Assembly: GCF_964213995.1 (NCBI RefSeq)
Contig: NC_135812.1
Location: 77,190,001 to 77,254,000, forward strand
Length of the DNA stretch: 64,000 bases
Source: Mustelus asterias
Taxonomy: Eukaryota
Reading direction: 5' to 3'
Shown here piece after piece: positions 5,667 to 36,720 of this stretch (the first letter of the stretch is position 1; every line of letters begins with the position of its first letter). The position numbers were made by a program, and so were the translations under genes. The notes under the pieces were generated by a model. It was given only the letters and a program-made list of their open reading frames with translations. It searched no databases and was not told where the DNA came from.

Positions 5667-6308
5667 TGTTAGGATGCCCTCTGAAATGGTTAATAATCAC
5701 ACAAGTTTAAAAATCACTTAAGTTGCTATGAGAGAAACCACATTATTAAAATCAACCCAGATAAGTGTCAAGGCCTAGTTGCAAGGGAGGAAACTCTTGG
5801 ATATAGGTTTATCTAACAAAGGCCCTTAATCTGAAAGAATTCATTAAATCAGACATCTGTCCCTGGGAGATGTAAATGGTCCGTACAAATCTGGACACAA
5901 GCTGGGATGTCAAGGATAACTTGTAACAATGGCCAGCTAACATGATCAAACATTTACACTGATTGGATATCATAATTAAGCAGACATGCAACAGTAGTGA
6001 TTGGTTTTAACATTTGTATCTTATGCATGATGCAACTCTAATCAATAGTTGAGAGTGGATAGAGATAATTCCTGTACCTTGAGTGGTATGTGTTAATTAC
6101 TCATAATCGAATCTGAAAGTATATTTGCTTGTGCAATCCTGAAACCCATACTCTGACTGGCCACTAACATGCTTTCCAGAGTCCTCGCTATGTAGTTTAA
6201 ATCAACTGATAGTGAAAAACTCCGTGACTTAGTCTGACTACTTGAAGGGAACAAAGTTTATTCCCATGTAATAAATTAAAAGGCTGAACACCAAAAAGCC
6301 CTGCAACA
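5667..6308 (-). mobile_element. Probable solo LTR inserted into CR1
   Basis: Non-CR1 block with TGTT...AACA termini interrupting CR1 RT sequence; minus-strand AATAAA near 6257. No clean TSD seen. Confidence 0.5.
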
Positions 6309-12585: not shown

Positions 12586-14202
12586 CTGGCATGGACACAA
12601 CAAGCTGACTGGCGTCCTGTGCTGTAACCATTCCACAATTCTTGTTGCTTCATGTGCTATAAGTTACATATTTCAATGCTATTTGTAACATTGAGCAAAA
12701 TATACATTTAGTTACTTGTGATATTCCAATTCACCTGAAATTTTTCTGAATGAATATTTGACTCATTTGTTTATAGTTTATTTTAACTCTTATCAGGAAG
12801 AAAATACAACTGAAAGATCAATGGTTAAAAAAATGTTCACTTCATTCCAATACAGCAAACAGAAATGATTTCACTGAGAAGTCAGTAACGTCACGAGAGG
12901 AGTCAGAAAACTGAGCAGCAAAGAGACTCCTCATACAGTCTCATTATTTCTAAGGGCATCAAAATGGATTTGCACCTTCCTACAAGCTCCCAATTTTTAC
13001 ACGTGGGTTTAGCATTATATGATTATTGTTTCCTTGCTTGGCTCTCCTTGGAAGTGCCCTGCAATAAGGGACACAGTTTTTTAAAAATTTGATTTTATAA
13101 ACTACTAAATGCAGGATTGTTGCTGTTTCTGTCCAAACCCAAGGCAGGATTAGTGGATAGTTACAGAACTGGTTCTCCTGCAAGCTCCACTAGAATGAAT
13201 TACTGCCCTTGTTACAATGTCCATAGAGACATTTTAAAATGAGATGTGAATTTTCCTAGTGACTGACATCAGGGATCACACAGTGACATTTCTCATTTTA
13301 AGATTTTTACTGTAGCAAACACACAAAAATCAAAATGGACTAAACATTCCTTAGTCGGCAGCTAATACACTAAACTACAGAAAAGGAATTCACTAGTAAC
13401 TTCTTAACACAATCGCAAACTCCATGTTGCATTTATACATTACACTGAACTCTCTGCGTCCAAAGCTCTTCGCTCGAACAGGATCTCTTCTTGCATCACC
13501 AGGGTGAATCTTCCAGTGTCTTTTCCCTTCGCTCAACCCTATAGGATAACTAAATGAAGTTCCCATTACTTGGTACTCTCTGGTGATTCTGTGGTCTTTA
13601 ACGGGCGGCATGGTAGCACAGTGGTTAGCATGGCTGCTTCACAGCTCCAGGGTCCTGGGTTCGATTCCCGGCTTGGGTCACTGTCTGTGTGGAGTTTGCA
13701 CATTCTCCTCGTGTCTGCGTGGGTTTCCTCCGGGTGCTCCGGTTTCCTCCCACAGTCCAAAGATGTGCGGGTTAGGTTGATTGGCCATGCTAAAAATTGC
13801 CCCTTAATGTCCTAAGATACCCATTTTGATGCCCTTAGAAATAATGAGACTGTATGAGGAGTCTCTTTGCTGCTCAGTTTTCTGACTCCTCTCGTGACGT
13901 TACTGACTTCTCAGTGAAATCATTTCTGTTTGCTGTATTGGAATGAAGTGAACATTTTTTTAACCATTGATCTTTCAGTTGTATTTTCTTCCTGATAAGA
14001 GTTAAAATAAACTATAAACAAATGAGTCAAATATTCATTCAGAAAAAATTCAGGTGAATTGGAATATCACAAGTAACTAAATGTATATTTTGCTCAATGT
14101 AACAAATAGCATTGAAATATGTAACTTATAGCACATGAAGCAACAAGAATTGTGGAATGGTTACAGCACAGGACGCCAGTCAGCTTGTTGTGTCCATGCC
14201 AG
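12586..14202. repeat. 382-bp near-perfect inverted repeat: arms 12586-12967 and 13821-14202, 853-bp spacer
   Basis: Direct reading: the right arm is the reverse complement of the left; about 2 mismatches noticed. Confidence 0.97.
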
Positions 14203-32316: not shown

Positions 32317-33860
32317 TTAAAGTTGATAAGGCACAGGGACCAGCTAAGATGCATCCAAGGATATTGAAAGAAGTGAGAATAGAAATTGCTGGGGCACTGG
32401 CCATAGTCTTCCAGTCTTCTCTAGACTCGGAGGTGCCAGAGGACTGGAGAATTGCAAATGTTATGCCCTTGGTCAAAAAAGATTGTAAGGATAACCCCAG
32501 CAATTACAGTCCAGTCAGTTTAACATCAGCGATGGATAAGCTTACAGAAACAATTATTTGGGATAGAATTAATGGACACATTGAAAAATGTGGGTTGATT
32601 TGGAAGAGCCAGCATAGATTTCTAAAGGGGAAATCATGTTTAGCTAAGTTGCTAGAGTTTTTTGAGGAGGTAACAGAAAGGGCCGATGAGGTAATGCTTC
32701 TGATGTGGTGTACAAGGACTTTCAAAAGGCATTTGATATAGTGCCACACAACAGACTTGTGAGAAAAGTTTAGCTCATGGGATGAAAGGAGTAAGAGGTA
32801 CAGTAGCAACATGGATACATAATTGGCTGAACAATAGGAAGCAGAGAGTAATGTTAAATGGATATTGTTTGGGCCGGAGAAAGGTTTATAATGGTGGTCC
32901 CAAAGGGTTGCTATTGGAACCCTTGCTTTTTCTGATACATTAATGATCTAGATCTTGGTGTGCAGGGGAGAATTTCAAAGTCTGCCGATGACAGAAAACT
33001 TGGAACAGTGTAAACTGTGAACAGTGTAGAATATCAGAAGAACAGAGACCTGTCGGTGGAGTGAACAGATAAGTGGCAGATGAATTTCAATGTGGAGAGG
33101 TGTGAGGTGATGCATTTTGGTAGGAAGAACATGGAGACAATCTTAAGTAAGATGTAAAATCCTTAAGGGGGTGCAGGAGCAGGAGGACCTGGGTGTATAT
33201 GTGCTTATATAATTGAACATAGCAGGACAGGTGGAGTGAGCAGTTAATAAAGCATATAGTATTCTGGGTGTTATTGATAGAGGTTATGCTGAACTTATAC
33301 AAGCCACTAGTTACATCTTAACTGGAAAATTGCATACAGTTCTGGGTGCCACACTAATGGAAGGATGTGAATGCATGGGAGAGAGTGCAGAGCAGGTTTA
33401 CAAGAATGGTTCCAGGGATGAGATACTTCAGTTATGAGAATAGATTGGAGAGGTTGGAACTGTTCTCCTTGGGGGGAAGAAGGCTAAGAGGAGATTTGAT
33501 AGAGGTGTTCAAAATCATGTGGGGATGGACAGTGTAGACAGGGAGAAACTGTTCTTGCTTGCAAAAGGATCAAGAAAGAGTAGGCACAGATTTAAAATGA
33601 TTTGCAAAAGAAGCAAATGTGATGTGAGAAAAAACTTTTTCACACGGAGTCGTTCGGGTCCGGACTGCATTTCCTGGAATTGTGGTGGTGGCAGACTTAA
33701 TTGAGGCATTCAAGAGGGCATTAGATATTTATTTTGATGGAAACAATGTGTAGGGTTATAGGGAAAAGGCAGCGGAATGGCAATAAGTTATGATGGTTGG
33801 TGATCCAGTGCAGAATTGATGTGCCAAGTAGACTTCTTCTGCCCTGTAACAGTTCTGTGA
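32317..33860 (+). mobile_element. Decayed CR1 LINE (RT to 3' UTR)
   Basis: KAQGP..HPRILKE..VPEDWRIANV..NYSPVSLTS..KSCLAKLLEFFEEV. Confidence 0.9.
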
Positions 33861-33879: not shown

Positions 33880-36720
33880 TGGTTCCATATCTTTATTCTG
33901 TTGGTAGCAACAAAGGTTTAATCTAACAAGGTCCCCTTTCCCTTGGGTGCCTTTTCCAGACTCAATAGTTGTGTTTAAAAAGAAGCTAATTTAACCAGGC
34001 CTTGTGAGTTAAGACAATGTAAGTTTCTTAACAACTAAAACAATAAAAAGAAATAGTAAAACACATGCATCTATATTCATATGAATTAGAAGTGAGAATT
34101 GAATCCAGTAGTAAGTAAATATAAATGAAAAGTTATGCCAACCAGGAGTAGATGATGTGCTGCAGCTGTTCCGGATTGGTTCCAGTATATTTGACCTCTA
34201 CAGGTGAGTAGTTGACTCTTCGATTCAGTCATTGTGTTGTTTGGTAAAGAGATTTCAGGGTTTTTTCCCAGCTGCAATCCTTCTGCTGGCTGATTTTTAA
34301 AAATTTATTTATCCAATTCAATCAAATCAAGTCCAATTCAGAGTCTCAACAAGTGAGACATTCCCGATCCGAGCTGACAAGACAGGGCTCTCACCTCCTG
34401 TCTTGGGCTTGATCTACATGGTCCAAGCTGATTGGAGTAGGCATTGCACCTCCTCCAAGGCTTGATCTCATTTGCATCTTAGCCAAAAGGCCGAGATGCT
34501 GCTTTTAAAAATTGCTTCAAATAAAGCTAAAAATGTAACCTAATGACTTCAACCAAGTACAGCATGTCGATACTGCACTTGATCTTAGCCAAAAGGCCGA
34601 GATTTTTAAAAAAAATACTTTTCCAATTCAATCAAATCAAATCCAATTCAGAGTCTCAACAAGTTGAGACATTTCAGATCCAGGCTGACAAGACAGGGTG
34701 AGCGACCAAACCACCCTGTCCTGGGCCTGATCTACATGAGCCAAGCTGATTGGAGAAGGGGGAGGTTCCTCCTCCAAGACTTGAGCTCATTTGCATCTTA
34801 GCCAAAAGGCCGAGATGCCGTTTTAAAAAATTGCTTCAAATAAAGCTCCAGTGTAACCTCATTGACTTCTATCAGGCGCAGGACAGCAAAACTACACTTG
34901 ATCTGAGCACAGACACAAACTGACAGACAGACACCAGCAGGCCAGTAACAACAGGTGTTTAACCCCCTCCTATGTACATTTCAAGAGGACCAGAGTACAA
35001 TAGTCTTGTCTAGGCTATTATACCCAGAGTGTTCATGATGGATTGGCAATTATGTTCCTTTGTCTTTACCAGAAATAGTAGTCAGTCTTTGGAAGTACCT
35101 CGTCTGGAAACACAGGGAGAGATTCCGTTTTCAATTAGAGAAACACTCCCGTCAGCGGCTAATTGTTGTGTTAATTTAGAAATATAAAACTCAGGTCTTT
35201 TTAAAGTCCAATGTTTCTGTGTATAACTCCTTGGTTTTTTCCCCCCATCATCATTACACTTCGCTGCAGAATGAAATAAGGCTCATTCTCATTTCATTAC
35301 AAAAAGGGAGAAAAAATATGAATAACAACACTCTCTTACACACGCATTCACTCTCTTAGTAATGTCAGTTGTATCTTTTCTCAGTCCTATTGAGGCAGCT
35401 TTAAGTTCTGGACAGGGCATTCGTGATCATGTTCCATTTCACAGGAATGTGGGTGATTTTTAAGTGGTACAGTTGGAGGAGCAAACTCCAACAAAATGGA
35501 CTAGCATTTTGGGTTTTAAACTTTTCTACAAAAGTTAACAAACTGTGGTTGGTATAGACTGCAGTCTCTCTCTACCCATTTTGGACATTTTTCTCAAAGT
35601 GTTTGAGAGCCAGTAACAACCCAAGGACTTCCTTCTCTATTGTGGAATACCATTTCTGATGCTTGTTAAGTTTTTTAGAGAAGCACCTGATAGGTCTTTC
35701 TATTCTGGGTGTGTCCTCCTGTAGGAGAACAGCTCCCATCCGGATGCCAATGGCTACTTTAAATGTTTGGCTAAAATCAAGGACTGTAAGCACAGGTTCA
35801 CTTATTCAAATGGTCTTCAGCTTTTTGAAAGCAGTCTGGCATTTCTCAGTCCGTACTACCTTTGCTTCTTTCAAGAGTAGATCTGTAGGTGGGGCAGTGA
35901 CTGTGCTAAAACTCGGGACAAACTTGCAGTAGATCCCATATTCCCCAAGAACCTCACAATTTCCTGTTTTGTGGTGGAAATAAGGAACTGGACTAAGACT
36001 TATACCTTGGCAGTCCTGGGGCAGTATCTGTCCTTGACCTACTACGTTTCCTAGATAGATCACTTCAGGCTTAGTGAACTCGCTCTTGGTGAGATTAATC
36101 ACTAGGCATGTTGGCTGTACTGTCTGGAAGAAGCCTCCCAGTAACTCTTCGTGGATTTCCCACACCATGCACTAGGAGATTGTCCAGGTACATCATGCAA
36201 GTGGACGAGCCCGCCACTATCTGGTTCATCGGCCTTTGGAAGGTAGCCGGGGCATCTTGGAGTCCAAAGGGCATAACCCGACACTGATATAACTTTATAT
36301 CTGGAGTCACAAATGTGGAGATTTCCTTCACGTGGGTTGTCAAGGCAACCTGCCAGTATCTCTTGAGTAATTCTACCTTTATGGTATAGGTGGCTCTACC
36401 TGCTCTATCTATGTCTTTCAGCCGGGATATCGGGTAGGAATCAGCCCAGGGCCCTGCATTAGCTTTTCAGTCATCAATGCAGAATTTTGTGAATCTATCC
36501 AGCTCGGGTACAAGCACAACTGGGGAATTCCAGCTACTGTTGCTAGGCTCTGTTAGTTGGTGCTCCAGGATGTAATTAATCTCTTCCCAGACTTGGGCCA
36601 GCTTTGTTGGGCCTACAGGGTAGGGATGTTGCGCTATGGGAGGAGCCTCTCCCACATCATGCATGATTAGGGTGGTGCAGCTGGATCTGTCTCTTAGATG
36701 TGGTGAGCAGCCTGTCAATA
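33880..36720 (-). mobile_element. Decayed Gypsy (Gmr1-like) LTR retrotransposon: RT, RNase H and probable 3' LTR
   Basis: SWNSPVVLVP..FCID, MPFGLQDAPATFQR..YLDN, GAVLLQED..FSKKL..YSTIEKE, then WSLLLQ..NALSRT*; purine run on the minus strand near 35240. LTR extent is uncertain. Confidence 0.8.
34294..34902 (-). mobile_element. Tandem dimer of a ~300-bp U2 snRNA-headed structured unit (candidate U2-derived SINE or ncRNA)
   Basis: Units 34294-34602 and 34603-34902; 34569-34602 matches U2 nt 7-40 at 33/34; a second U2 stem-loop I in each unit; CTGA flanks both ends (possible 4-bp TSD). Confidence 0.75.

Follow-up and report, generated by a model that had tools for sequence, protein, structure and literature searches.

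A U2-headed SINE family of Mustelus asterias and its probable propagation from invaded U2 genes

Within the open literature, to which the search was confined (Repbase, Dfam and subscription papers lay outside its scope), the only prior descriptions found that resemble the present locus are the SINEU families of crocodilians and the elements Keno and Utopia. SINEU-1, -2 and -3 (Kojima 2015, PMC4494074) are reported from crocodilians only, and the accessible part of that paper gives no source locus or promoter for them. The same part names SINEU transcription as an open question, and the available portion of PMC5786205 still treats it as unsettled. According to the accessible text of PMC4640811, the 3′ junction of Utopia lies at U2 nt 39 and that of Keno is identical. 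No U2-headed SINE family of fishes is described in this open literature, including the available parts of PMC5381603 and PMC5786205.

The window, that is, the whole 64,000-nucleotide stretch of Mustelus asterias DNA that was analysed, contains two such U2-headed units in tandem on its minus strand, with the following parts.

34294..34603, minus strand: unit 1, a near full-length U2-headed SINE of a middle-aged subfamily
34569..34603, minus strand: first U2 head of unit 1
34543..34588, minus strand: stem H, seen in the folds, which pairs onto U2 nt 18-38 and covers the branch-point recognition bases
34475..34499, minus strand: second U2 head of unit 1, 96% identical to U2 nt 4-27 and following a tail-like T/A run
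34470..34477, minus strand: octamer ATGCAAAT on the boundary between head 2 and the body
34420..34468, minus strand: stem C of unit 1, with the C/UCA loop and a private change at 34421
34366..34414, minus strand: stem B of unit 1, with the C/UCA loop and a private change at 34371
34343..34359, minus strand: stem A of unit 1
34294..34342, minus strand: 3′ tail of unit 1, made up of short repeats rich in T and G and then an A/T-rich end
34604..34904, minus strand: unit 2, a 5′-truncated SINE copy in tandem upstream of unit 1
34891..34904, minus strand: truncated first U2 head of unit 2
34794..34818, minus strand: second U2 head of unit 2
34737..34789, minus strand: stem C of unit 2, seen in the fold
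34677..34732, minus strand: stem B of unit 2, with the G-C form of the swapped pair and an extended tip
34653..34670, minus strand: stem A of unit 2, seen in the fold
34604..34652, minus strand: 3′ tail of unit 2, the last ~12 nt of which look by eye like the Keno-type LINE at its 3′ end

In the alignment, unit 2 is a chimera, with a 5′ half of the oldest type and a 3′ half of the youngest type. No Rfam family matched at its gathering score anywhere in the window, and no ribozyme or processing family of Rfam matched the units. The U2 match in the window is partial and scores 43.5 bits, under the gathering score of 46, where true U2 genes reach 175-190 bits; a functional U2 snRNA gene, which would possess a full-length U2 with its 3′ domain, was accordingly rejected. 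Weak Rfam matches to snoRNAs and miRNAs (E 0.05-9) were taken as chance. Elsewhere in the window, positions 12586-14202 hold an inverted repeat of 382 bp (99% complementary, 853-bp spacer), possibly a young DNA element, and a decayed LINE-like stretch upstream of the units (32500-33830), which we take to be of CR1 type, has several relatives within the window.

The two units belong to an abundant family. A genome-wide search with an 18-nt linker pattern gave 5,683 matches and its reversed control 0, which sets the copy number at 5,683 at least, and DNA queries against the 3.68-Gb genome returned 2,121 candidates for unit 1 and 724 for unit 2, the best 40 of each being 96-99% and 97-99% identical, respectively. 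These linker matches, together with subfamilies of 97-98% internal identity, identify a true family of shared structure rather than a set of independent chimeras. A full copy measures ~330 bp. From 5′ to 3′, it opens with a first head identical (100%) to nt 1-39 of the U2 gene of this genome, followed by the stem-H stretch that pairs back onto it. A small hairpin and a tail-like T/A run lead to the second head, 96% identical to nt 4-27 of the same gene, after which come stems C, B and A, then short repeats and finally an A/T-rich end. In 63 copies, target duplications measuring 9-24 bp were read, a few of the short ones being perhaps spurious. Head 1 is present in 77 of the 97 copies of a chromosome-ordered sample, in which U2 nt 1 is the most frequent 5′ end (11/77). 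For comparisons among copies, 189 were collected, part of them picked by likeness to the window units, and 147 full-length ones were kept; dropping four hyper-edited copies left 143. The largest young subfamily, distinguished by a long head tip, accounts for 36 of the 147. Inside a subfamily the head-body junction is constant, and the youngest group is mosaic, with 40 of 55 site pairs failing the four-gamete test. The SINE body is covered by contigs of three out of four sequencing runs, from three organisms (39, 84 and 141 records), so the family is common to related species.

No tRNA head was found in the SINE, and no tRNA, 5S or 7SL family of Rfam matched it up to E 10. In addition, T4 and T5-6 runs lie inside the element, and a Pol III class of SINE was rejected on both grounds; the accessible part of PMC4494074 likewise takes internal T runs as an argument against Pol III transcription. 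The element is very probably a U2-headed retroposon moved by a Tx1 LINE. The octamer ATGCAAAT stands where head 2 meets the body in 71 of 77 copies; in the window it occupies 34470-34477 and 34789-34796, and in tandem arrays it lies ~200 bp ahead of the next head. Its presence may be chance, and a promoter made by tandem copies themselves through this octamer was set aside as speculation, the distance to the proximal element being variable. Sm-site-like motifs of the tail were also discarded, as they are absent from the oldest subfamily. One variant (L099:51-350) lacks the second U2 head and lies immediately 3′ of the U2 upstream flank. At L141, L176, L183 and L226, neighbouring copies stand head-to-head or on opposite strands within ~500 bp, the head region having been struck in both orientations.

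A partner LINE of 5.6 kb occurs inside U2 genes, between U2 1-35 (or 5-35) and U2 38-191. Its ORF1 carries ZCCHC3-type RNA-binding and zinc-knuckle domains and its ORF2 an AP-type endonuclease, a reverse transcriptase (RT) and zf-RVT, and it shares with Keno both the two ORFs with AP-type endonuclease and RT and the insertion in U2 genes at nt 38/39, where the A at nt 38 is indistinguishable from a tail A. One copy retains open frames of 364 aa and 1,144 aa, and the best 150 matches to its proteins are 94-100% alike. Exact 3′ ends number 596 in the genome, and this wide dispersal points to a relaxed target specificity. Like the SINE, the LINE has a 5′ end that pairs back onto its own U2 head. 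Two further elements were observed: a Keno-type element reduced to 1.2 kb by internal deletion, which carries a U2 head of its own and adjoins an intact U2 gene (L095:3883-5074), and a dispersed LINE copy with ~90 nt of U2 spacer at its 5′ end (L231:1500-1604), like the SINE at L230 described below.

The insertion site of the LINE is also used by the SINE. U2 sequence from nt 38 onwards directly follows the SINE tail at 8 places (control 0), and one on-target SINE, beside a LINE tail, has an 18-bp duplication of U2 38-55, the LINE's own being 21 bp. Seven of the first 30 LINE 3′ ends, at 6 places, have a SINE within 600 bp where 0.14 are expected, an adjacency weighed against the expected count alone. 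As in SINEU, a Tx1-clade LINE with a common target is thereby associated with the SINE, by junction and adjacency, and would be its means of mobilisation. SINE copies gather near one another as well (25 of 100 have a SINE neighbour within 600 bp; 0.2 expected), and the family's 8 exact on-target places compared with 5,683 copies indicate that most insertions ignore U2. The targets seen are U2, the SINE's own heads and sites with a weak pyrimidine-A preference (33 of 45). An origin of the SINE by internal deletion of the LINE was rejected, given that both share the U2 head only and that the body matches the LINE UTRs no better than shuffles. None of 18 comparisons of the body with the 5′ and 3′ UTR of the LINE, the U2 spacer, the U2 upstream and downstream flanks and U2 itself was convincing, the best being equalled by 14 of 300 shuffles; a likeness noticed by eye between a hairpin in the LINE 5′ UTR and the base of stems B and C does not reach significance in the shuffle test.

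True U2 genes of a first family form arrays on contig C24, and a second family on contig C21 (175 bits, 448-bp units) is about 85-90% identical to the first. At C21:28.05-28.08 Mb (L235-L240, L271) this second family has a different spacer and is heavily invaded by LINE and SINE. Its upstream flank was found at 12 places, followed by a SINE at 6, by the LINE at 2 and by an intact U2 at 4. In the first-family array, one unit is occupied by a SINE whose flank is identical to that of the neighbouring intact gene over 494/494 aligned bases. The junctions of these embedded copies are seamless, with U2 nt 1-39 followed by the SINE. Of 57 matches to the first-family flank, 54 lie in the C24 arrays and the 3 outside are all SINEs that carry 4-7 nt of this flank, for about 0.2 expected. 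Dispersed copies with a U2 flank carry about 4-95 nt of it, the longest piece being that of L230, with ~95 nt of U2 spacer within its target duplication, while at L229 a LINE tail, the 3′ part of U2, spacer and SINE all lie inside one target duplication. An extra U2 5′ piece stands in front of L230, L308 and L309. Among copies tied to U2 flanks there are six head-tip types, and the largest young subfamily was not seen in U2 genes at the U2-linked places read. Both families of U2 flank contain a similar element ending in AAAG ~45 nt upstream, which we take to be the proximal element from its consensus and from the position stated in PMC4494074.

The arrays show other signs of invasion as well. 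At C24:44815159-44935499 (L091), units of ~8,035 bp each combine an intact U2 gene with a Keno-type LINE. The LINE ORF2 is broken by an insertion and a frameshift in the one unit that was read, and the copies are near-identical, which suggests amplification at the level of the array. In several units of an array with a 1,833-bp U2 repeat, short duplications around U2 nt 18-37 with loss of the following bases (L092:2625-2831, L092:6349-6519 and neighbours in L093, L094 and L100) may be scars left where insertion at the Keno site was aborted.

Both window units fold strongly on the minus strand, with z -6.96 for unit 2 (0 of 200 dinucleotide shuffles as stable) and z -5.57 for unit 1 (0 of 100). 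Since the plus strand of unit 2 folds well too (z -5.52 and -96 kcal/mol, compared with -117 kcal/mol for the minus strand), folding by itself does no more than lean to the minus strand; an RNA of U2 sense, favoured by the initial annotation, gains its firmer support from the A-to-G hyper-editing described below. That annotation had also proposed stems A, B and C in both units, a change of A-U to G-C in stem B (34409/34372 vs 34727/34683) and the same asymmetric loop, C opposite UCA, in stems B and C, all of which were recovered here. The swapped pair is G-C in 87, A-U in 41 and G-U in 14 of the 143 copies (other, 1), so that G-U intermediates exist. Stem B pairs as had been written out, save for one bulged base that had been left out, and a fourth long stem, H, which had gone unmentioned, pairs back onto the first U2 head. 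The suggested pairing of the tail with AGAUCAAG appears in the folds of the window units, which have a truncated head or a damaged stem B, but not in those of 11 subfamily consensuses, where AGAUCAAG pairs within its own hairpin, and this long-range pairing was discarded as the family fold. Two private changes of unit 1, at 34371 and 34421, disrupt stems B and C in the RNA of U2 sense; at both positions, nearly all the contig depth of three runs carries the other letter.

Selection on RNA structure had been put forward for these stems, and it can be addressed by separating shared from private variants. In 53 scaffold pairs, pairing is kept by 9/9 variants found in six or more copies, by 9/21 found in 3-5 copies and by 31/124 found in one or two copies, the private ones (Fisher p 1e-5 between first and last class, with a six-copy threshold set after the base-pair counts had been inspected). 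Per site, private changes are about as frequent in stems (1.17) as in other unpaired sites (0.98) and in tips (0.84), whereas shared variants are rare in stems (0.09) compared with other unpaired sites (0.27) and tips (1.22); hence the copies decay neutrally and the source line keeps the stems. The source line turns over its stem tips while the stems stay. Constraint on structure thus applies to the source lineages and not to the window units themselves, which are dispersed, neutrally decaying copies.

Formal covariation in the larger alignment is weak. Of the 41 cluster representatives, 40 were used (one hyper-edited copy was excluded and another retained), and in these 95.2% of cells pair. 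Double-sided change affects 2 of 61 pairs only, no more than in shuffles (mean 3.0; 458/500 as high), though the cell count is higher, at 17 vs 6.7 (4/500 as high). The two pairs are the swapped one of stem B (G-C 18, G-U 12, A-U 10) and one at the tip of B (A-U 12, G-C 7, G-U 2). The C/UCA loop is kept in 134/143 and 132/143 copies in the two stems, one 7-copy subfamily having C/CCA in stem B. Stems H, B and C all begin with U2 nt 24-31 and end on the complement of this stretch; duplication or repeated addition of heads is therefore the likely origin of the repeated loop. Of the protein-binding or processing motif suggested earlier, the duplication of stems B and C therefore stands, and a special role of C/UCA is not supported: its 8 loop bases hold one shared variant, too little for a comparison with other unpaired sites (0.27 per site) to support any special constraint.

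Four of the 147 copies are hyper-edited: most of what separates them from their neighbours is A-to-G change in the U2 sense.

L016:1509-1817: hyper-edited copy
L018:2142-2450: hyper-edited copy
L141:394-701: hyper-edited copy
L195:1125-1423: hyper-edited copy

The A-to-G share of changes in these copies is 22/26, 15/20, 11/12 and 7/8, the copy highest in T-to-C reaching 8/18, and this bias on the U2-sense strand fixes the strand of the RNA. Edited sites have a 5′ A/U in 33/55 cases vs 79/218 (p 0.002) and favour a 3′ G (p 0.03), the neighbours preferred by ADAR. An inverted SINE neighbour lies beside two of the four copies. These clustered changes likely represent edited RNA fixed by reverse transcription, and no such case was met among the titles and abstract openings listed for the literature on edited retrotransposed copies. 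Editing also bears on the stems: 4 of the nine shared changes are A-to-G, which weakens the test for selection, and the other five are C/U transitions, all of which keep pairing. Enrichment of A-to-G among recurrent variants is confined to the youngest group (6/11; others 2/11 and 3/15).

The reading that we consider likely is that the SINE, which also resides inside U2 genes, is transcribed there from the U2 promoter and is copied by the Keno-type LINE at the same site. Transcription from this promoter, mobilisation by the LINE and the role of the stems are the parts that we infer. A SINE landing at nt 38 of a U2 gene would join it seamlessly through its own U2 head and, once under the U2 promoter, would become a source. 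Its RNA would begin at U2 nt 1 and fold into stems H, C, B and A, and the ORF1 and ORF2 proteins of the LINE would reverse-transcribe it from the A-rich end. Nearly all new copies would miss the target, be devoid of a promoter and undergo neutral decay; as only U2-embedded sources would propagate, the stems would be kept solely along the chain of sources. Most likely, the job of the stems would be to make a compact and stable RNA, with its U2 branch-point bases hidden, that is taken up by the LINE proteins. A more ambitious version, which we regard as possible and put forward tentatively, is a closed-cycle parasite of snRNA genes, in which a SINE devoid of its own promoter would be made as a transcript of the U2 promoter, combining U2-gene sources renewed by the LINE, hiding of the branch-point bases and ADAR-driven evolution of the stems. 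In that case, stem pairs would pass from A-U to I-U, read as G-U, and then to G-C, each editing event being fixed by reverse transcription. If true, such a cycle would explain the transcription of snRNA-headed SINEs and would mean that RNA editing feeds compensatory evolution.

Two counterpoints concern the sources, as flank extensions could be template jumps onto U2 transcripts and SINE copies in arrays could be read through from upstream. It might thus be argued that the sources are dispersed or array copies transcribed from outside promoters of host genes or of the LINE, with heads renewed by template jumps onto U2 snRNA. The same route is argued for crocodilians in the accessible part of PMC4494074, and it suits the retrotransposed array piece in the single target duplication of L229, the extra U2 5′ piece ahead of L230, L308 and L309 and the fact that no U2-embedded copy of the largest young subfamily was seen. 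However, renewed heads fit poorly with a head-body junction constant per subfamily, with six head-tip types linked to U2 flanks and with nt 1 as the most frequent start, and we hold this route to be unlikely. The choice of the LINE can be questioned as well, if the SINE were moved by another element (CR1, L2, L1 or a different Tx1) and met the Keno-type LINE only at common open sites. The two lack a common 3′ UTR, the site preference is weak and a quarter of the SINEs examined (25/100) cluster with their own kind; the 8 places where the 3′ junction falls precisely on U2 nt 38/39, the duplicated U2 38-55 of 18 bp that resembles the 21 bp of the LINE and the youth of both families, each 95-99% alike internally, nevertheless make this very unlikely.

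As for the stems, mutational processes (hairpin template switching, A-to-I editing or recombination between SINE RNAs) might keep them in place of selection. The four A-to-G changes among nine shared paired ones, the four hyper-edited copies, the strong mosaicism of the youngest group (40/55 four-gamete failures) and the weakness of formal covariation all leave room for this, yet the other five shared changes are C/U and all paired, compared with 25% of private ones, and shared variants per site amount to 1.22 in tips and 0.09 in stems. Moreover, one-sided G-U intermediates, bulges and asymmetric loops persist, where template switching would be expected to perfect the palindrome, and we judge a purely mutational origin to be quite unlikely. 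That the window units are themselves functional non-coding RNA genes (a variant snRNA, a ribozyme or a small-RNA precursor) with a protein-binding C/UCA motif would agree with their strong folding and with the retention of the loop in 134 and 132 of 143 copies. The existence of thousands of copies, dispersed with target duplications and decaying neutrally, the stem-breaking private changes of unit 1 and the lack of any Rfam family at gathering score render it extremely improbable.

With specific candidate source loci located behind U2 flanks, a young partner LINE whose frames are open and subfamilies that display G-U intermediates in series, the family makes the question of SINEU transcription directly testable. 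As far as the literature searched reaches, the family extends snRNA-headed SINEs beyond crocodilians, and it preserves apparent A-to-I editing as DNA.

Among known systems, the crocodilian SINEU families are the closest. In both cases, according to the accessible part of PMC4494074, the element is shorter than 500 bp, has a U2-derived head, more than one head, an A-rich tail, target duplications and internal T runs, shares its 3′ body with no LINE, inserts in tandem around the target duplication and has a Tx1-type partner with a U2 head at its own 5′ end. SINEU heads may come from U1 or U2 snRNA, and here both (nt 1-39 and nt 4-27) are from U2; the SINEU type of short non-coding retroposon with an A-rich tail and target duplications is represented by a copy of ~330 bp. 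The differences, within the same part of that paper, are that SINEU targets Mariner-N4 through Tx1-Mar whereas the present partner targets U2 itself, that its text leaves RNA structure undescribed, and that here SINE copies stand behind U2 upstream flanks. An origin independent of the crocodilian bodies is presumed. Keno, as given in the available parts of PMC4494074 and PMC4640811, matches the partner LINE in its AP-type endonuclease and its 3′ end at U2 nt 38/39, but the new element is a non-coding passenger and not the LINE, and the partner is also dispersed. Truncated U2 retropseudogenes and snRNA/LINE chimeras likewise carry a U2 5′ fragment of ~35-39 nt and target duplications; they are one-off products, in contrast to the thousands of copies with one body and subfamilies found here. 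R2, as cited in the accessible part of PMC4494074, similarly occupies a multicopy RNA gene, that of 28S rRNA, probably relies on the promoter of its host and has a seamless 5′ junction. Unlike the SINE, R2 is autonomous, co-transcribed by Pol I and released by a ribozyme, whereas the present family, with no ribozyme match, retains the 5′ end of the host RNA as its head.
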